Part shown: piece after piece, positions 8,668 to 27,994 of the stretch
Numbering within the stretch: the stretch's first letter is position 1
Layout: the number at the start of each line of letters is the position of its first letter
IMG/VR virus record: IMGVR_UViG_3300036790_000500
Span: 1 to 64,000 of that record
DNA: 64,000 nucleotides
Direction: 5' to 3' (one strand)
Origin: a virus
Notes under the pieces: model-generated
Told to the model about the DNA's origin: nothing
Databases searched by the model: none
What the model saw: only the letters and a program-made list of their open reading frames with translations
Translations under genes and position numbers: made by a program

Positions 8668-8709
8668 GTCAGGGTCTCCTCTCGCTGTTTGCTGTGTGCT
8701 TTGCTCGGC

Positions 8710-8774
8710 GGCTCCCGGGGGACTCGAACCCCCGCGGGCTATCATCCGGCGGGCTCCTGTGCCCGCGGGGAGCC
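8710..8774 (-). ncRNA. tRNA-like RNA: acceptor stem plus T arm, with D/anticodon arms replaced by a hairpin with an ACAGGA loop
   Basis: GGCTCCC/GGGAGCC 7 bp; GGGGG-TTCGAGT-CCCCC; GCGGGC-ACAGGA-GCCCGC. Confidence 0.7.
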
Positions 8775-21263: not shown

Positions 21264-21800
21264 GTGCTGGAGAAGAAGTGGAAGGCCCTGACGGGCGCTG
21301 AGGTTGACCTGAAGCGGGTCGTCGAGGAGGAACTCGCGCTCTATCCCGGTGCCGAACTCCACGTCGGCTCTGACAGCCAGCAGGTGGGTCAGAACACCGA
21401 GTACGTCACCGTGGCGGTCATCCATCGCCCGGGAAAGGGCGGTCGGGTCTTCTTCTGCCGTGAGCGCATTCCACGAGTAAAGGAGTTGCGTGAGCGACTA
21501 TGGAAGGAGGTCTGGCGGTCGACGGAACTCGCGATGGAACTCACCGCGACGCCGGACATCGGAACGGCTCCTGAGGTGGTTGTGGCGGCCATCCACATCG
21601 ACGCCAACGTCGACCCCCGGCACAAGTCCTCGAAGTACGTGGAGGAACTCGTGGGGCTCGTCATGGGCCAGGGCTTCAACGCCATGGTCAAGCCGGAGTC
21701 ATGGGCAGCGAGCCACGCGGCTGACCACGCGGTGAAGGGAAAGAACGAGGCCTCTCACAGGAAGCCGCACTCGCAGCCACGAAGGAACACTGGAAGGTAA
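21264..21800 (+). CDS. ribonuclease H-like YkuK (DUF458) family protein
   Basis: HVGSDSQ, IHIDAN...HKSS, KPESWAASHAADH. Confidence 0.85.
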   Translation: MLEKKWKALTGAEVDLKRVVEEELALYPGAELHVGSDSQQVGQNTEYVTVAVIHRPGKGGRVFFCRERIPRVKELRERLWKEVWRSTELAMELTATPDIGTAPEVVVAAIHIDANVDPRHKSSKYVEELVGLVMGQGFNAMVKPESWAASHAADHAVKGKNEASHRKPHSQPRRNTGR

Positions 21801-21937: not shown

Positions 21938-22014
21938 GGTGGTACTGGTGTAGCGGCCCTGCACACCTCACTGTGACTGAGAAGGTACCGGTTCGACCCC
22001 GGTGTATCACCCCA
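21938..22014 (+). tRNA. tRNA-His(GTG)
   Basis: G-1:C73, CCA encoded. Confidence 0.9.
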
Positions 22015-22015
22015 A

Positions 22016-22087
22016 GCGGACGACGAGACAGGCCTACGGGTCGACCTCAAACGTCGACTGATGCCGGTTCGAATCCGGCCGTCCGCA
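22016..22087 (+). tRNA. atypical tRNA-Leu(CAA): short variable arm, degenerate D arm
   Basis: GCGGACG/CGTCCGC; TCGAC-CTCAAAC-GTCGA; canonical T arm. Confidence 0.7.
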
Positions 22088-22092
22088 CGATT

Positions 22093-22169
22093 GCCCTCGA
22101 AGTTCAGTCTGGTAGAACACACGCTTGGTAAGCGCGAGGATGCCGGTTCAATGCCGGTCGAGGGCTCCA
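22093..22169 (+). tRNA. tRNA-Thr(GGT)
   Basis: Cloverleaf, CCA. Confidence 0.9.
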
Positions 22170-22170
22170 T

Positions 22171-22246
22171 GGGTCATTGGCGTAACGGACAAGCGTACTC
22201 GGCTTTTACCCGAGCGGTGGGGGTTCAACTCCCTCATGACCCACCA
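22171..22246 (+). tRNA. tRNA-Lys(TTT)
   Basis: Cloverleaf, CCA. Confidence 0.9.
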
Positions 22247-22252
22247 TTTCAT

Positions 22253-22326
22253 GCCCACGTAGTTCAACGGAAGAATGTCCGTTTCGTAATCGGACGACGC
22301 CGGCTCAACTCCGGCCGTGGGCTCCA
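22253..22326 (+). tRNA. tRNA-Thr(CGT)
   Basis: Cloverleaf, CCA. Confidence 0.88.
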
Positions 22327-22401
22327 AAAGTGATACGACCCGTCATGAGACGGCCGGGGTCAACTTCACCGTTGCGGTCTTTACCCTTGGGACCGCACCA
22401 T

Positions 22402-22475
22402 TGAGGAGTGGTGTAATTGGTAACACAGTACCCTCTGAAGGTAACAGATTGTGGGTTCAAATCCTACCTCCTCAA
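22402..22475 (+). tRNA. tRNA-Gln(CTG)
   Basis: Cloverleaf. Confidence 0.88.
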
Positions 22476-22486
22476 CTAATTACCCT

Positions 22487-23182
22487 GTGCCAACCTGTGA
22501 ACATTGCAGCAACGAGCATGATGGGTCTTATGCGACTGGAAGATTCTGTGCTGAATTTTGTTACAGACAGTTCGTCACGGCCAAGGGGAATGCAAAACTG
22601 TCCCAGAAATGGGACTCGATTCATGCTTCATACGATTCGAATCCGAACCGTTGTAAAGAATGCGATGAAGCATTGTCTTTTAGACGACGAAACAAACCCT
22701 TCTGCAGCAAGAAATGCTCATCGAAGCACAGTAACAAAGGGAAATTCTGGGCTAAACCGAAACAGTGTCGACGCTGCAGTAATCCAGCAACAAAAGGCAG
22801 CGTACTCTGTGAAAGGTGCAGGGATTCTCATTTGAAGAGGACGAGCCCAGACAAAAAGTTCATCGTGGCTAAAAAGGGTGGAAAACCACCACGAAATGCC
22901 TTGCTGATGATTCGCGAATATCGATGCGAAGGCGAAGGCTGCGGACTGACTGGTATGTGGCTCGGAAAACCACTCACACTCCACTTTGACCACATAAACG
23001 GTGATAGACGAGACCACCGCTTGGGAAACATTCGCTGGCTCTGCCCAAACTGTCATAGTCAGACAGAAACGTACGCAGGGAGAAACATTGCTTCCGCAAG
23101 ATTGAAACGCTTTTCAGGTGTACAGGCACAGACCCACGACTTTGAATCGACGGCGTCAGAGGGTTCGACTCCTTCCACCTGA
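22487..23182 (+). CDS. free-standing HNH homing endonuclease with N-terminal Zn-finger repeats
   Basis: LHFDHINGDRRDHRLGNIRWLCPNCHSQT; FCSKKC motifs; lower GC than flanks; start uncertain. Confidence 0.88.
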   Translation: MPTCEHCSNEHDGSYATGRFCAEFCYRQFVTAKGNAKLSQKWDSIHASYDSNPNRCKECDEALSFRRRNKPFCSKKCSSKHSNKGKFWAKPKQCRRCSNPATKGSVLCERCRDSHLKRTSPDKKFIVAKKGGKPPRNALLMIREYRCEGEGCGLTGMWLGKPLTLHFDHINGDRRDHRLGNIRWLCPNCHSQTETYAGRNIASARLKRFSGVQAQTHDFESTASEGSTPST

Positions 23183-23186
23183 ACCA
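23114..23186 (+). tRNA. atypical tRNA-Gln(TTG), overlapping the HNH 3' end
   Basis: TCAGGTG/CACCTGA + ACCA, T arm, CTTTGAA loop; weak D arm. Confidence 0.65.
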
Positions 23187-23194
23187 ATTTTTTT

Positions 23195-23267
23195 GCTGAC
23201 GTGGTATAGTGGCAATTACTTCTGCCTTGTAAGCAGCACAACCTCGGTTCGAGTCCGAGCGTCAGCT
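23195..23267 (+). tRNA. tRNA-Thr(TGT)
   Basis: Cloverleaf. Confidence 0.88.
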
Positions 23268-23274
23268 TAGTTCT

Positions 23275-23352
23275 GTACTCCTAGCGTCACTGGTGAATTG
23301 CATTAGTCTGTTAAACTAAGAGAGGTGGGTTCGATTCCCACGGAGTACGCCA
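23275..23352 (+). tRNA. tRNA-Asn(GTT)
   Basis: Cloverleaf, CCA. Confidence 0.85.
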
Positions 23353-23359
23353 AGTTTAT

Positions 23360-23473
23360 GTCGTCGAGACGAAAGCCAAGCGAGTGACGTTGCGTGCTTG
23401 GAACTCTTTCCTCCGTCCCTAGTACGAAGTACAAGGAGCGGGATGGGTCCTGGTGCGAGTCCGGGCGGCGACA
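23360..23473 (+). ncRNA. tRNA-scaffolded RNA carrying a sarcin-ricin-loop-like helix
   Basis: GTCGTCG/CGGCGAC acceptor, CCTGG-TGCGAGT-CCGGG T arm, CCGTCCC-TAGTAC-GAAGTACAA-GGA-GC-GGGATGG. Confidence 0.7.
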
Positions 23474-23485
23474 CCTTTCATCTTT

Positions 23486-23557
23486 GGGCCATTAGTGATA
23501 ACGGGAGCACACCGCACTTGCAATGCGGAGGCAGGAGTTCGACACTCCTACGGTCCA
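23486..23557 (+). tRNA. tRNA-Ala(TGC)
   Basis: G3:U70, cloverleaf. Confidence 0.88.
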
Positions 23558-23568
23558 CTTTACGAAAT

Positions 23569-23639
23569 GCTTCATTAGTTCAATGGTAGAACTCGCGGCC
23601 GATAACCGCAAGACGGAGGGTCGGTACCTCTATGAAGCA
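23569..23639 (+). tRNA. tRNA-Ile(GAT), divergent T loop, C33
   Basis: Cloverleaf. Confidence 0.8.
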
Positions 23640-23644
23640 CGACT

Positions 23645-23725
23645 GCGGTCAACGACTCGATACCTGCCGAAACGCAGGGACCCACGAGCAACGTGCCGGA
23701 ACCATCTGGAATACCGGTGGCCGCA
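23645..23725 (+). ncRNA. unknown structured RNA closed by an acceptor-like stem
   Basis: GCGGTCA/TGGCCGC-A; CTCG/CGAG, CCTGC/GCAGG, CCGG/CCGG helices. Confidence 0.5.
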
Positions 23726-23733
23726 ATCACTAT

Positions 23734-23804
23734 GCCCCCATGGCGTAACGGTAGCGTATCGTTCTTACAAATCGAAGGCCCAGGCTCGACTCCTGGTGGG
23801 GGTA
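23734..23804 (+). tRNA. tRNA-Val(TAC)
   Basis: Cloverleaf. Confidence 0.85.
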
Positions 23805-23812
23805 CTGTCCAT

Positions 23813-23888
23813 GTCTCTGTAGCACAGACGGTGAGTGCGACCGGTTGAAACCCGGAAGACGGTGATTCGATTCCACCCAGAGACGCCA
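23813..23888 (+). tRNA. tRNA-Phe(GAA)
   Basis: Cloverleaf, CCA. Confidence 0.85.
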
Positions 23889-23889
23889 T

Positions 23890-23966
23890 GCACCCGTCGC
23901 CCAATGGATAGGGCACATGATTACGAATCATGACAAGTGGAGGTTCGAGTCCTCTCGGGTGCACCA
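23890..23966 (+). tRNA. tRNA-Arg(ACG)
   Basis: Cloverleaf, CCA. Confidence 0.92.
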
Positions 23967-23967
23967 T

Positions 23968-24042
23968 GTGTCTATAGCCCAACGGATAGGGCAGCAGTTT
24001 CCGAAGTTGCAGATACAGGTTCGATTCCTGTTAGACACACCA
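23968..24042 (+). tRNA. tRNA-Arg(CCG)
   Basis: Cloverleaf, CCA. Confidence 0.9.
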
Positions 24043-24044
24043 AT

Positions 24045-24118
24045 CGAGATGTAGCCTATTGGAAGGCCCACGCTTTGGGAGCGTGCTCACGCTGGTTCGA
24101 ATCCAGTCATCTCGACCA
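24045..24118 (+). tRNA. tRNA-Pro(TGG)
   Basis: Cloverleaf, CCA. Confidence 0.9.
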
Positions 24119-24122
24119 GTTT

Positions 24123-24196
24123 GCCGGCCTAGCCCAACGGTAGTAGGCACCTCATTTAAACTGAGTCCAGTGAGGGTTCGAGTCCCTCGGTCGGCA
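24123..24196 (+). tRNA. tRNA-Leu(TAA), short variable arm
   Basis: Cloverleaf. Confidence 0.85.
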
Positions 24197-24202
24197 CTGC
24201 AT

Positions 24203-24275
24203 ACGTCGTGTGAGATGGTCTCGGCCGCGGCTCCAACCCGTTGGCGAAGGGGTTCGATTCCTCTACGGCGTGCCA
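24203..24275 (+). tRNA. tRNA-Trp(CCA), miniature D loop
   Basis: Acceptor, T arm, CTCCAAC loop, CCA. Confidence 0.75.
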
Positions 24276-24281
24276 ATGTTT

Positions 24282-24356
24282 GCCGACGTTCCCAGCGGTG
24301 AGGCAGCACGTTTAGAGCGTGATTAGTTGTAGGTTCGAATCCTATCGTCGGTACCA
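24282..24356 (+). tRNA. tRNA-Leu(TAG), short variable arm
   Basis: Acceptor, T arm, TTTAGAG loop, CCA. Confidence 0.75.
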
Positions 24357-24361
24357 GGTTT

Positions 24362-24434
24362 CGAGTTGTAGTTCAGTAGGTAGAACGCACCGTTCGGGAC
24401 GGTGAGGTCGCTCGTTCGAATCGAGTCAACTCGA
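24362..24434 (+). tRNA. tRNA-Pro(CGG)
   Basis: Cloverleaf. Confidence 0.9.
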
Positions 24435-24439
24435 CAAAC

Positions 24440-24512
24440 GCCGCCGTAGCCCAATGGCAGAGGCAATGGTTTGAGAGGCCATCCAGTGACGGTTCGAGTC
24501 CGTTCGTCGGCA
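24440..24512 (+). tRNA. tRNA-Leu(GAG), short variable arm
   Basis: Cloverleaf. Confidence 0.85.
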
Positions 24513-24517
24513 CAACG

Positions 24518-24528
24518 TGTGGTATGAT
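24518..24528 (+). promoter_or_regulatory. extended -10 promoter TGTGGTATGAT inside the tRNA array
   Basis: Same motif as at 2865, 10371, 17448, 25508, 27043. Confidence 0.65.
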
Positions 24529-24541
24529 TGCTTCAGCAACT

Positions 24542-24630
24542 GCTCCTGTAGTTTAACGGCAAAACCCCGGCCTTATACTCCGGTCGCGCTGGATTAGCGC
24601 AAGTTCTCGGTTCGAATCCGAGCGGGAGCA
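24542..24630 (+). tRNA. tRNA-Ile(TAT)-like with long variable arm
   Basis: Cloverleaf, CTTATAC loop, GCGCT-GGATT-AGCGC extra arm. Confidence 0.75.
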
Positions 24631-24634
24631 CCGT

Positions 24635-24711
24635 GACCCCGTATCCCCTCGACCTCCTAAGTCGGTGAAAGGGTAACCGGACACATGCAGGTTCAATTCC
24701 TGTCGGGGTCG
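24635..24711 (+). tRNA. rearranged tRNA-Arg(CCT)-like RNA with no 5' D arm
   Basis: GACCCCG/CGGGGTC, CGAC-CTCCTAA-GTCG, long 3' insert, canonical T arm. Confidence 0.65.
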
Positions 24712-24718
24712 CTTTTTT

Positions 24719-24803
24719 TGCAGGGACAAGCACCGGGCGCTGGTCGGGCTCATAATCCGACGCCGAGAGGCACAGTGGGTTCGATTCCCATCCCCTGCTA
24801 CCA
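24719..24803 (+). tRNA. tRNA-Met(CAT), initiator-like, with extra arm
   Basis: 1:72 mismatch, GGG in anticodon stem, GCC-GAGA-GGC arm, CCA. Confidence 0.7.
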
Positions 24804-24805
24804 AT

Positions 24806-24890
24806 GGGAGTGTAGACGGTTAAGGAGACCGCCCCGGCTGTAACCCGGGAGCCCCAACGGGCCAGCCAGGTTCGATACCCGGCACTCTCA
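24806..24890 (+). tRNA. tRNA-Tyr(GTA)
   Basis: Cloverleaf with long variable arm. Confidence 0.85.
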
Positions 24891-24893
24891 CTA

Positions 24894-24973
24894 GGATACG
24901 AAAGCGGCGATTCGCGCCGGTAGGCTTGCAGGCCTGCGAGGTTCCCGCTGCAGGGAAGGGACTTTCGTATCCA
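24894..24973 (+). ncRNA. unknown four-way-junction RNA
   Basis: 11-bp closing stem GGATACGAAAG/CTTTCGTATCC with three internal hairpins. Confidence 0.6.
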
Positions 24974-24980
24974 TTGCCTT

Positions 24981-25057
24981 GGGTCTCTGGCGAAATCGCG
25001 TATCGTACCTCCCTCTTAAGGAGCGAGTTCTGGGTTCGAATCCCAGGAGACCCACCA
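24981..25057 (+). tRNA. tRNA-Lys(CTT)
   Basis: Cloverleaf, CCA. Confidence 0.88.
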
Positions 25058-25063
25058 TCACCT

Positions 25064-25136
25064 GCTTCGTAAGTCCGCTGGCGCGGACAGGCGATTGTCT
25101 ATCGTCTCAAGATGGGTTCAATTCCCATACGAAGCG
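25064..25136 (+). tRNA. tRNA-Asp(GTC)
   Basis: Cloverleaf. Confidence 0.85.
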
Positions 25137-25140
25137 CTCA

Positions 25141-25213
25141 GGGAGAAGACGCGGTTCAATTCCGCGGCACTGGAGGTGACTCCGGTGTGAGTGTGACGGC
25201 TACGCACGCTCCC
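25141..25213 (+). ncRNA. circularly permuted tRNA mimic (YrlA Y-RNA-like arm order: T arm, closed acceptor stem, D arm)
   Basis: GGGAG-AAGA-CGCGG.TTCAATT.CCGCG-GCACTGGAG.GTGA.CTCCGGTGT-GA-GTGT.GACGGCTAC.GCAC-G-CTCCC. Confidence 0.75.
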
Positions 25214-25220
25214 GCTCTAT

Positions 25221-25291
25221 GGCGCATTCGGTCAATGGTAGGCCGCCCGGTTCTCAGCCGGATAACATGAGTTCGATTCTCATATGCGCTA
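25221..25291 (+). tRNA. tRNA-Glu(CTC)
   Basis: Cloverleaf. Confidence 0.88.
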
Positions 25292-25295
25292 CTTA

Positions 25296-25416
25296 GTCGT
25301 AGAACTACCCGCGTAGTCGCGTGCGGGGGGCAGGGGAGGTTACGGCGCGTTCAGGGCGCCAAGAACAGAACCTCCGTAGTCGGTTGGGCACTGAACCGCA
25401 ATCGGCGAACGGACAC
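25296..25416 (+). ncRNA. unknown multi-hairpin RNA
   Basis: CCCGC/GCGGG, GGAGGTT/AACCTCC with GGCGC/GCGCC, GTCGGTTG/CAATCGGC helices; no ORF. Confidence 0.5.
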
Positions 25417-25421
25417 TTTTC

Positions 25422-25495
25422 GCGGGCTTGGCCGATTGGTTAGGCGCTGGATTTCCACTCCAGTCAGAGGGTTTCGATTACCCTAGTCCGCTCCA
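25422..25495 (+). tRNA. tRNA-Gly(TCC)
   Basis: Cloverleaf, CCA. Confidence 0.88.
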
Positions 25496-25520
25496 ATTCC
25501 GAAGTGGTATGATGCATGCC

Positions 25521-26294
25521 ATGAAACTGCCGCTAATGCTTGCTACGTTGGGGGCCCTCGTCGCCCCCGTCCACGCCGACGGAATGTCGTCGGGTGTAAC
25601 GAACCGGGGGGACTGCCCTCACGTTAAGAAGAGCGTCGTCGTTCACCGGCGAAAGCGAGTTGCTCCGCCGACGAAGCCATCGACGCCGGTGAGTCCTCCC
25701 GTGCGTTTGGCCTGTAGTTGTCCTCCCGGTCTCCAAGGCCCTCCGGGACCGAAGGGACCTCCGGGTGAGACCGAGGTCGTTATCCGGGTCGTACACGAAG
25801 TCATTCGTGAGCAGGCTCCAAGCATCATGCTTCGCCTCGGTGTGATGGGCCAGGCGTATGGACCTCACGGTGACTGGGCATGGGGGCCGGCACTGCAACT
25901 GGCCGTTCCACTCGACCATCGTGACCGAAACGAACTCGTAATCGACGCCGGCCTGGCCGACATCGCTAACGGTGCCTCGTGGAGTCCGGGTCGGGAACCG
26001 GGACTCATGCTCCACGTCGGATACGCCCACTACCTCAGGTCCGTCCCCTGGCTGGGCGTTACCGGCGGCGTGGTTTACACGGCGATTAACGGCTCACCGC
26101 AGAACGGTCAGGTCGAGGGGCGTTACCTCTCGGGAGACATCGGGCTGGTGGCCCGGAAGTCCCTCGGTCGGTCACTCAGCCTTCGAGTTGAGGTCGGACC
26201 GACGGTCGGTGGACTCAGGGACACCCACGACCCCAATGACACGCAACTCGGAATCGGAGCGCAAGGCGCGGCTTTCCTGGGAGTAAGGTTCTAA
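25521..26294 (+). CDS. secreted protein with short collagen-like stretch and outer-membrane beta-barrel-like C-terminus, leaderless
   Basis: Signal peptide, GLQGPPGPKGPPG, amphipathic strands, terminal Phe; GTGGTATGAT 7 nt upstream. Confidence 0.75.
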   Translation: MKLPLMLATLGALVAPVHADGMSSGVTNRGDCPHVKKSVVVHRRKRVAPPTKPSTPVSPPVRLACSCPPGLQGPPGPKGPPGETEVVIRVVHEVIREQAPSIMLRLGVMGQAYGPHGDWAWGPALQLAVPLDHRDRNELVIDAGLADIANGASWSPGREPGLMLHVGYAHYLRSVPWLGVTGGVVYTAINGSPQNGQVEGRYLSGDIGLVARKSLGRSLSLRVEVGPTVGGLRDTHDPNDTQLGIGAQGAAFLGVRF

Positions 26295-26297
26295 GAC

Positions 26298-26639
26298 ATG
26301 AAATCAATCCTTCTCTCCCTTCTCATTTGCCTGGCGGCATGCGCTAGCCTCGACCGCAGTGACAACCCCCAGGCCGCGCCGCCCGCTGACGCTGAATCCA
26401 GTCCGGTCGGTTCTGATGCGAGCATGCCTCCTCCGCCGCCCCCTCCTCCCATCGATGCCTCGATTCCCGAGGACGCTCCCGAGCAGCCGGACGCGGGGTG
26501 CCACACCGGCTGTACCTGCGACAGCGACTGCTCCCACGGAGAGTACTGCGTGAGCGGGACCTGCGAGCGGAAGTGCGGTTGCATGGAGGACTGCCCGTCG
26601 GGGTACTCCTGTGACCGCGGCTACTGCGAACTCAAGTAG
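26298..26639 (+). CDS. Cys-rich lipoprotein (CxxDxDCxxGxxC repeats)
   Basis: LAAC lipobox, Pro/DA linker, two Cys-rich repeats. Confidence 0.8.
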   Translation: MKSILLSLLICLAACASLDRSDNPQAAPPADAESSPVGSDASMPPPPPPPPIDASIPEDAPEQPDAGCHTGCTCDSDCSHGEYCVSGTCERKCGCMEDCPSGYSCDRGYCELK

Positions 26640-26707
26640 CCGTTGACGGTCTCCGGCCCGGCTCCCACGTGAAGACCGTGTGGGATGAGAAAAACCGGGT
26701 TAACTCT

Positions 26708-26776
26708 GCGGGTGGCGTAAGGTACGCCGCGACGTTGCCAACGTAGCACCAGCCGGTTCGATTCCGGTCGCCCGCT
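26708..26776 (+). tRNA. tRNA-Gly(GCC), atypical D-arm junction
   Basis: GCGGGTG/CGCCCGC-U73, TTGCCAA loop, T arm. Confidence 0.75.
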
Positions 26777-26787
26777 CCGCTCTCGAT

Positions 26788-27036
26788 TCAGTTCGCCGTT
26801 TCGATGCTCTCGGCCTCACCCAGGACGCAACCGAAACTCGCCGCGAAGTGCTCCATCGACGAGTATCGAACTCCCTCGGCCTCGAACGTCCCGTCCTCCT
26901 TCTCCCAGACGATGAAGGAGGGAGAACCACAGAACGGTCCGGTGGAGTGCAACTCGAACATGTACTCCCGACCGCTGGGAGTGGAGAGCAACACGCGGTA
27001 CTTCTTTCCGACTGCGGTTGAAATCAGGACCGGCAT
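26788..27036 (-). CDS. hypothetical protein, leaderless, antisense within the tRNA array
   Basis: TTGCGGTATGAT 6 nt upstream of the ATG. Confidence 0.65.
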   Translation of the reverse strand: MPVLISTAVGKKYRVLLSTPSGREYMFELHSTGPFCGSPSFIVWEKEDGTFEAEGVRYSSMEHFAASFGCVLGEAESIETAN

Positions 27037-27061
27037 TCCCTCATCATACCGCAACACTTTT

Positions 27062-27141
27062 GGCGTCGTCGTTCAACGGACAACAAGGACCGCGGCCTTT
27101 CACCCCGCAGATGCAGGGTTCGACTCCCTCCGACGCCACCA
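27062..27141 (+). tRNA. tRNA-Glu(TTC)
   Basis: Cloverleaf, CCA. Confidence 0.85.
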
Positions 27142-27160
27142 CCAGCAGCATCACCATCAC

Positions 27161-27234
27161 GCACGGCACCTGGCGGCCAGGCTAACGGTTGCAACCCGTT
27201 AAGGACTCGGTTCGACCCCGAGGCTCGTGCTCCA
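27161..27234 (+). tRNA. tRNA-Cys(GCA), bulged acceptor
   Basis: AACGG-TTGCAAC-CCGTT, U73, CCA. Confidence 0.75.
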
Positions 27235-27235
27235 T

Positions 27236-27310
27236 GCCTCCGTCGCCCAACGGACAGGGTCCCGCTCTTCTAAAGCGGCAGTGGGGGTTCGAGTCCTCCC
27301 GGAGGCGCCA
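27236..27310 (+). tRNA. tRNA-Arg(TCT)
   Basis: Cloverleaf, CCA. Confidence 0.9.
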
Positions 27311-27320
27311 CTTAACTACG

Positions 27321-27770
27321 ATGCGTTACCAAGAGAAGTCCTGGAGTTGCGGAGCGGCCTCGCTGGCGAACGCCTGCCGGGCCCTCGGTAAGCGGGTCTC
27401 GGAGCGTCGCATGCGGGCCCTCTGCGGAACGAACGAGAACGGGACCGACGAGGCGGAGTTGATTCAGGCGGCGCGGGCCCTCGGCCTCACCGCTACGGAG
27501 TTCAAGGGAGCCGACAAGGGGGCCGCCTGGGCCTACGTCAGAGCACAACTCCTAGAGGGTCGGCCCTCCCTCCTCTGCGTCGAGCAGTGGCAGCACTGGA
27601 TTGCAGCGGTCGGCATCGTCGGTGACAAGGTCATCGTGATTGACCCCGCGAACACGGTCAGGAACATCGCTGAGAACGGTGTCTGGACGATGAACCGCAA
27701 CGAACTCGGAAAGACCTGGCGGTCCAGGGACCCCCAGGAGCCCTTCTATGTGCTTACCGTAGGAAAGTGA
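27321..27770 (+). CDS. stand-alone C39-like cysteine peptidase
   Basis: Q....SCGAASL, HW and VIDP catalytic motifs. Confidence 0.85.
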   Translation: MRYQEKSWSCGAASLANACRALGKRVSERRMRALCGTNENGTDEAELIQAARALGLTATEFKGADKGAAWAYVRAQLLEGRPSLLCVEQWQHWIAAVGIVGDKVIVIDPANTVRNIAENGVWTMNRNELGKTWRSRDPQEPFYVLTVGK

Positions 27771-27832
27771 CTACCTCATAGGGGCAGCGTTTCCATCACC
27801 TCTCAGACAAAACGAGAGTGGCTACAGAGCAA

Positions 27833-27903
27833 GCCAGCGAGGCCCGGGCGGCCTGGCCTGTTTCATAAGCAGGACCGCAGCGGTTCGACTCCGCTCGTTG
27901 GCA
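27833..27903 (+). tRNA. tRNA with CAT anticodon (Met or Ile2), degenerate D arm
   Basis: GCCAGCG/CGTTGGC, CCTGT-TTCATAA-GCAGG, T arm. Confidence 0.7.
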
Positions 27904-27912
27904 CGAAGACTC

Positions 27913-27994
27913 GGATGGTAAACCCACGCGGCGTGGGGCGCGCCCGCTAAGCGACGCAAGGCGAAAGTCAGGGGTTCGATTCCTCTACCATCCG
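27913..27994 (+). tRNA. tRNA-Ser(GCT)
   Basis: GGATGGT/ACCATCC-G, long variable arm. Confidence 0.78.

Follow-up and report, generated by a model that had tools for sequence, protein, structure and literature searches.

A probable tRNA-framed small RNA gene without an anticodon arm in the tRNA array of an uncultured phage

Introduction

Phage tRNA clusters have yielded tRNA-like stable RNAs without an explained function since the species 1 and species 2 RNAs of T4. In the tRNA array of a virus from the IMG/VR collection (record IMGVR_UViG_3300036790_000500), a 114-nt unit between tRNA-Asn and tRNA-Ala raises the same question: what kind of RNA does it encode, and what is its inner arm for? 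The original prediction took the inner arm for a mimic of the sarcin-ricin loop (SRL) of 23S rRNA, mounted on a tRNA scaffold and serving as a decoy for ribosome-targeting toxins or as a sponge for elongation factors. We analyzed the window, a 64,000-nucleotide stretch comprising the first 64 kb of a 107-kb record estimated to be ~52% complete, together with contigs of related phages, reached via the RNase H-like gene (PF04308) that immediately precedes the array.

Setting and anatomy of the 114-nt unit

ARAGORN identifies 31 tRNA genes in the window, located at 21939-27904 and all on the + strand. The RNase H-like protein has >500 relatives, and the order of its gene followed by the tRNA array is kept in the readable relatives (about a dozen loci). 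The features that frame the unit are:

21264-21800, + strand: RNase H-like gene (PF04308, YkuK/DUF458), directly upstream of the tRNA array
23275-23352, + strand: tRNA-Asn (ARAGORN)
23360-23473, + strand (the array strand): the 114-nt unit, 7 nt past tRNA-Asn and 12 nt ahead of tRNA-Ala
23486-23558, + strand: tRNA-Ala (ARAGORN)

Only one sequencing run covers the unit, a soil metagenome that probably comes from the source sample, and it showed no variants; among the runs listed as containing this DNA, none is of RNA. The + strand next to the unit shows no promoter-like or terminator-like site, which fits joint transcription with the tRNAs.

Sequence and ARAGORN calls agree with the predicted acceptor stem and T arm between the two tRNA genes, and the inner arm at 23413-23446 reads exactly as described, CCGUCCC-UAGUAC-GAAGUACAA-GGA-GC-GGGAUGG. 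We refer to it as the cargo arm. The parts of the unit, with their state in three syntenic phages and in a further contig, L003 (both described below), are:

23360-23366, + strand: 5′ strand of the acceptor stem, GUCGUCG, pairing with 23466-23472
23367-23370, + strand: junction AGAC, of which AGA is invariant in an alignment of the three syntenic units
23371-23410, + strand: two-tier arm in the D-arm position, present in the minimum-energy fold
23413-23419, + strand: 5′ strand of the helix flanking the cargo arm, CCGUCCC, pairing with 23440-23446
23420-23439, + strand: 20-nt core UAGUACGAAGUACAAGGAGC, conserved and identical at 19/20 positions in L003
23440-23446, + strand: 3′ strand of the flanking helix, GGGAUGG, covarying in L003
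23449-23465, + strand: T-type arm CCUGG-UGCGAGU-CCGGG, its stem 100% paired in three phages
23466-23473, + strand: 3′ strand of the acceptor stem, CGGCGAC, and discriminator A23473, with CC next at 23474-23475

The arms describe a four-arm cloverleaf in which no anticodon arm (5-bp stem, 7-nt loop with U33) can be drawn. In the two-tier arm, GAAAG/CUUUC (23371-23375 with 23406-23410) encloses CCAAGCG...UGCUUGG (23376-23382 with 23395-23401). The T-type loop UGCGAGU keeps U54, C56, R57, A58 and the closing pair G53-C61 and carries G at position 55; within the window's array it occurs in this unit only, and it is also found in a predicted tRNA-Leu of L070. The unit shares with canonical tRNA (RF00005) the 7-bp acceptor stem, the discriminator, the 5-bp T stem with its 7-nt T-type loop and the position in the array, whereas it lacks an anticodon arm and a D arm with GG, has A at position 8 and G at position 55, is 114 nt long, and is missed by both ARAGORN and RF00005. 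With these two bases at positions 8 and 55, a tRNA-like elbow is not assured.

None of 4227 Rfam families matched the unit, even at E up to 10, and permissive Rfam searches with the unit and its homologs returned chance-level matches only (5S on the wrong strand, FTHFS and permuted tmRNA). Three further identities were rejected. A tRNA gene interrupted by a short intron, or bearing a bulge-helix-bulge motif, would need a helix beyond the second bulge, which is absent. A small ORF from the AUG at 23443, behind AAGGAG, crosses two tRNA genes, and L003 lacks it. For a miniature RNase P RNA, suggested by AGUCCGGGC and a few 8-mers, there is no match among the Rfam RNase P models.

The tRNA-like frame in syntenic phages

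Two related uncultured phages, L006 and L063, share the gene order Thr-TGT, Asn, unit, Ala with the window, their units measuring 152 nt (L006, 13156-13307) and 130 nt (L063, 11921-12050) between Asn and Ala. All three units have the T arm CCNGG-UGCRAGY-CCGGR and the AGA junction after the acceptor strand. The acceptor stems differ in sequence yet pair in each phage: GUCGUCG/CGGCGAC in the window, GGGACCG/CGGUCCC in L006 and GGGACCG/CGGUUCC in L063. Counting acceptor and T stems together, 12/12 frame pairs are formed in all three units, and four of them change on both sides (three in the acceptor stem, one in the T stem). When the partner strand is slid by 1-3 columns, frame pairing falls to 27-61%. 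This covariation is drawn from three sequences, and 8/500 shuffles reach the observed values, so that the statistics are thin for a family of only four members. As read by eye, L006 and L063 can also form an analogous two-tier arm, tipped by GGAA and GAAA, respectively.

Strict and relaxed descriptor scans of all loci recovered only the 114-nt unit, L006 (= L061) and L063, and the arrays of the more distant relatives L054 and L069 lack the unit. In L069 most of the spacer between Asn and the next gene is filled by a tRNA-Ala(UGC) with G3-U70 (L069:4943-5013), missed by ARAGORN. BLAST searches with the three units returned no homolog among 50,697 phage records; a 25-nt match of the L063 T arm to T4-like tRNA-Met genes has E about 1. 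Pattern searches of IMG/VR with the T arm alone, or with junction and T arm, produced only coding or chance matches beyond the known members. Single-sequence fold z-scores are weak (-1.5, -0.7 and -0.8, the first for the 114-nt unit as a whole), so that the case for the unit comes from its homologs, not from folding energy. Judged from these homologs, the 114-nt unit is a real RNA gene, and its family is so far confined to uncultured phages.

The cargo region in close relatives

Between the D-side arm and the T arm, the syntenic units hold other structures. L006 has an extended hairpin whose loop is anticodon-like (CCCGA-CUUUGAA-UCGG), a small hairpin CCU-CGCG-AGG and a third, GCGGG-AGUAGCUGA-CCCGC. 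L063 has three different hairpins, the last being ACGAG-CGCAAUAU-CUCGU. The UAGUAC and GGA strands of the 114-nt unit are kept in neither. The 185-kb record behind L006 (G002, 91% complete) contains no match to the 18-nt core within three mismatches. By sequence comparison, the sarcin-ricin-like arm is outside the conserved frame of the family.

A 20-nt core shared with an unrelated phage

An exact search with an 18-mer of the core identified a second carrier, the 38-kb IMG/VR contig L003, in which the core lies within a structured RNA of 144 nt that stops 4 nt short of the phage's only tRNA gene (Val) and is located upstream of a family A DNA polymerase gene. The two cores are identical at 19/20 positions, the sole change being G to A opposite A62. 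The flanking helix is CCAACGG/CCGUCGG in L003 against CCGUCCC/GGGAUGG in the window, which amounts to three compensatory changes and one broken pair, and the core arm is followed in L003 by a T-like hairpin with GGUGnnAGUCCG. No proteins are shared between the two phages at E below 1e-4. About 1 or 2 chance matches to the exact 18-mer are expected in the IMG/VR collection, and one further match, in L002, lies in coding DNA and was rejected as chance. We regard L003 as a real relative because the T-like hairpin, the helix and the tRNA neighbor extend the resemblance beyond the 18-mer.

Searches of IMG/VR, 185,579 species genomes, 50,697 cultured-phage records and 359 kb of related arrays yielded no further carrier of the core. 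Relatives of the L003 phage, found via its DNA polymerase, are without the element. Among 185,579 species genomes the 18-mer has four matches, all in coding or Shine-Dalgarno contexts. An IMG/VR pattern combining the core, with a free 9-nt loop, and a T arm gave only coding or chance matches beyond the known members. A covariance model of core arm and T arm recovered the 114-nt unit and L003 and no others in 359 kb of related arrays. The match in L003 supports a clearly constrained core and a cargo arm that appears to be under selection.

An alternative is that the unit has no function of its own, being a spacer with structure or a tRNA gene that is decaying or has expanded, and that the SRL-like word arose by chance. 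This would fit the high variability of the inner part in close relatives, the L054 and L069 arrays that lack the unit, the weak fold z-scores and the several further odd tRNA-like units in the array. We consider it quite unlikely: a dead gene would not hold 12/12 frame pairs through compensatory changes in three phages, nor would its 20-nt core be kept at 19/20 positions, within a helix that covaries, in an unrelated phage. Given how far the cargo has diverged among close relatives, some of the unit may be drifting.

Two competing folds of the core

The core can be folded in two mutually exclusive ways. In the bulged-G (loop-E) option, C66 pairs with G76, A65 with G77 and U64 with A78, G63 is bulged, A62 lies opposite G79 (A in L003), U61 is set against C80, and the cap is the 9-nt loop GAAGUACAA. 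In the alternative, GUAC-GAA-GUAC forms a hairpin that leaves UA and AAGGAGC unpaired. ViennaRNA ensembles prefer the hairpin, with pair probabilities of 0.97-0.99 in the 114-nt unit and 0.71-0.72 in L003, for a gain over the open loop of 0.7-1.1 kcal/mol in a model that gives the loop-E pairs no credit. An extra register that lowers the minimum-energy fold of the 114-nt unit is impossible in L003. The core is invariant, so it offers no covariation for either fold, and energy models cannot separate the two at a difference of ~1 kcal/mol.

If the hairpin is the true structure, the RNA would be a tRNA-framed molecule whose binding partner, a protein or the 16S rRNA 3′ end, contacts the unpaired AAGGAR(C), a Shine-Dalgarno-like element, or the hairpin itself. 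The hairpin appears in both the minimum-energy and the centroid folds of the 114-nt unit and of L003, AAGGAG is a perfect Shine-Dalgarno word, and the only Rfam near-match of L003, which is not significant, aligns this stretch with the ribosome-binding end of the FTHFS motif. Set against this are the small energy gain, the AAGGAA of L003, which makes a weaker anti-Shine-Dalgarno partner, and the outcome of an IMG/VR search for hairpin-compensating variants (pattern TAGYRCGAAGYRCAAGGA), which besides L003 gave only coding or chance matches. We rate this reading as unlikely.

Resemblance to the sarcin-ricin loop

The E. coli helix 95 (H95) sequence to which the arm had been likened is correct: a 37-mer containing it matched the 23S rRNA of 5426/5426 genomes at 100%. 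The arm shares with H95 (E. coli 2647-2673) the UAGUAC 5′ strand, the 3′ GGA and the closing Watson-Crick helix, all in register, which makes the sequence compatible with a bulged-G module. It differs from H95 in that the 9-nt GAAGUACAA stands in place of the GAGA tetraloop, the position of A2654-C2666 is A-G in the 114-nt unit and A-A in L003, a competing 4-bp hairpin takes the same bases, and the motif is not kept in the syntenic homologs. When the 107-kb record was scanned for a descriptor made of UAGUAC, 4-12 nt, GGA and 2 nt, enclosed by a helix of ≥5 bp, a single occurrence was found, where shuffles predict 0.03; as the motif was picked after the sequence was read, this rarity is suggestive rather than decisive. 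A loose AGUA/GA descriptor turns up often by chance and carries no information.

In the GAGA tetraloop, A2660 is the target of ricin and the bond between G2661 and A2662 is the site of alpha-sarcin and VapC20; the tetraloop also contacts EF-G and EF-Tu. The 3′ strand of the rat SRL reads GGAAC. An arm that imitated H95 could act as a cleavage-resistant decoy for SRL toxins (VapC20-type enzymes or ribotoxins) or as a sponge for translational GTPases. The identity of UAGUAC with E. coli H95 and the register of GGA and closing helix speak for such a role, as do the GGAAC 3′ strand of L003, the 19/20 core across unrelated phages with its covarying helix, the rarity of the descriptor (0.03 expected per genome) and the compatibility of the loop-E fold with nearest-neighbor energies. 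The part of the SRL that toxins attack and factors contact is, however, the part that GAAGUACAA replaces; in addition, the syntenic units of L006 and L063 hold other hairpins there (with AGUAGCUGA and CGCAAUAU loops), the 91%-complete G002 lacks the core within three mismatches, predicted ensembles prefer the GUAC hairpin, and the invariant core gives no covariation to show the loop-E pairs. Without the recognized tip, the arm could act as a decoy only toward partners that read the bulged G. Taken together, an SRL mimic serving as decoy or sponge seems very unlikely.

What stands of the original prediction is the scaffold, whose stems covary in three syntenic phages, and an arm that appears to be selected; the identification as mimic or decoy is not supported, given the missing GAGA tetraloop, the absence of UAGUAC/GGA from L006 and L063 and the absence of the core from G002. 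Two findings that would have counted against it are each present in part: AGUA/GGA is not kept by the homologs in L006 and L063 while L003 keeps 19/20 of the core, and the minimum-energy fold uses the GUAC-GAA-GUAC hairpin, yet by only ~1 kcal/mol.

Comparison with known tRNA-like RNAs

In design, the closest precedent that we found by comparison is T4 RNA C (rnaC, species 1 RNA; NC_000866 70908-71046). Like the 114-nt unit, it is encoded inside a phage tRNA cluster, and it has an acceptor-like closing stem beside a T arm, two long arms between them at the sites of the D and anticodon arms, and no anticodon. It differs in its canonical UUCGAAU T loop, in two U-U mismatches in the closing stem, in lacking a UAGUAC...GGA arm, and in host range and phage lineage. 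No BLAST match links the two (50,697 phage records), and model R1 is silent on the T4 locus (L110). RNA C and RNA D of T4 are described as "RNAs of yet unknown function" (PMC9697503).

YrlA-type Y RNAs (RF02553) are likewise small phage or bacterial RNAs with a tRNA-like module and no decoding function. The Ro60-binding stem of Y RNAs is built from the 5′ and 3′ ends, with the tRNA-like part lying inside the molecule (Chen et al. 2014, PMC4201824), whereas the ends of the 114-nt unit form an acceptor stem. RF02553 has no match on the unit, and no TROVE/Ro60 gene was found in the 107-kb record, which is ~52% complete. Searches of the same record for a CCA-adding enzyme, Ro60 and RtcB were negative, which says little for about half a genome.

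Entry into the ribosome, or aminoacylation, as a miniature tmRNA-like or chargeable tRNA-like domain is hardly credible. The L063 unit has G3-U70 and discriminator A, the identity elements for alanine, a permuted-tmRNA acceptor piece gives a weak, non-significant match (12 bits, E 0.8), and true tmRNA genes occur in the arrays of the distant relatives L055, L056 and L084. The corresponding pair is C3-G70 in the 114-nt unit and G3-C70 in L006, and the unit has no tag reading frame and no ARAGORN tmRNA call and is far shorter than known tmRNAs.

A putative processed carrier with variable cargo

We consider it probable that the 114-nt unit is an anticodon-less, tRNA-framed small RNA gene of the T4 RNA C kind, a processed carrier with a conserved frame and variable cargo. 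The RNA is most likely transcribed together with the surrounding tRNA array, and its place there makes maturation by tRNA-processing enzymes plausible. Stacking of the acceptor stem on the T arm is what RNase P and the 3′-end enzymes recognize, so the unit should be excised like the neighboring tRNAs: RNase P would release the 5′ end, and trimming at the 3′ end and completion of the encoded A-CC would fall to the usual tRNA 3′-end enzymes. The frame, comprising the acceptor stacked on the T arm and the long arm in the D position, would provide a stable, correctly processed carrier. This frame is conserved, and what lies between its D-side arm and T arm, one arm or several, varies from phage to phage. 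In this phage the cargo is a single arm with a strictly conserved 20-nt core, to which a protein or RNA of the host or the phage most likely binds.

What is new in this family is that the frame is conserved and the cargo varies by lineage, and that unrelated phages share one cargo sequence, which suggests a specific binding partner common to their hosts. A frame that is kept, an arm that is swapped and a core shared without shared proteins point to a specific, probably host-side partner, and the 20-nt core could serve as bait for finding it. Should the partner be a ribosome-targeting toxin or a translation factor, the unit would represent a new kind of RNA counter-defense; at present it is a new small family of known design whose sarcin-ricin resemblance is unproven. 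A broader idea is that phages display interchangeable hairpins of the translation machinery on a tRNA frame, such as a sarcin-ricin-type bulged-G module in this phage and L003 and the anticodon-like CGA-CUUUGAA-UCG in L006, as decoys or sponges against RNA-targeting host toxins. It would explain the quick turnover of cargo between close relatives, and we consider it improbable.

Other RNA features of the arrays

Full tmRNA genes lie within the tRNA arrays of L055 (10404-10777), L056 (14703-15073) and L084 (15351-15721), which show ~50% identity in the RNase H-like protein; no tmRNA was called in the window, L006 or L063. Weak tRNA-Sec matches (31 and 27 bits, below threshold) at 24720-24798 and 27913-27993 (+ strand) fall in array gaps without ARAGORN calls and are probably long-arm tRNAs. 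ARAGORN calls no tRNA-Ser in the window, and the arrays of relatives begin with two or three.

Three further loci in the window have tRNA-like or structured features. At 23641-23733 (+ strand), between tRNA-Ile and tRNA-Val, a second non-tRNA unit has a 7-bp closing stem (UGCGGUC/GGCCGCA), inner hairpins, a fold z-score of -3.3 and no Rfam match. At 8709-8771 (- strand), a tRNA-like 3′ half with the T arm GGGGG-UUCGAGU-CCCCC scores 17.7 bits with model R1 and lies within a stretch (8-16 kb) of 66-70% G+C, against about 60% elsewhere. At 23114-23186 (+ strand), a tRNA-like gene encoding A-CCA has a 7-bp acceptor stem (UCAGGUG/CACCUGA), a canonical T arm (GAGGG-UUCGACU-CCUUC) and the anticodon loop CUUUGAA (UUG, Gln); it is without a normal D arm, was missed by ARAGORN and RF00005, and is overlapped by the 3′ end of an HNH-like ORF (22451-23182).

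This Gln(UUG)-like gene has 13 nucleotides in its anticodon arm (23137-23149) that are identical to CGA-CUUUGAA-UCG in L006 (L006:13208-13228); the L006 hairpin differs from the stem of L006's own tRNA-Gln(UUG) (CGGGG/CCCCG). T4 rnaC (L110:1409-1547) carries GAGUAGCGU twice, once per long arm, and its resemblance to the L006 loop GAGUAGC and to UAGUACG of the 114-nt unit may be chance.
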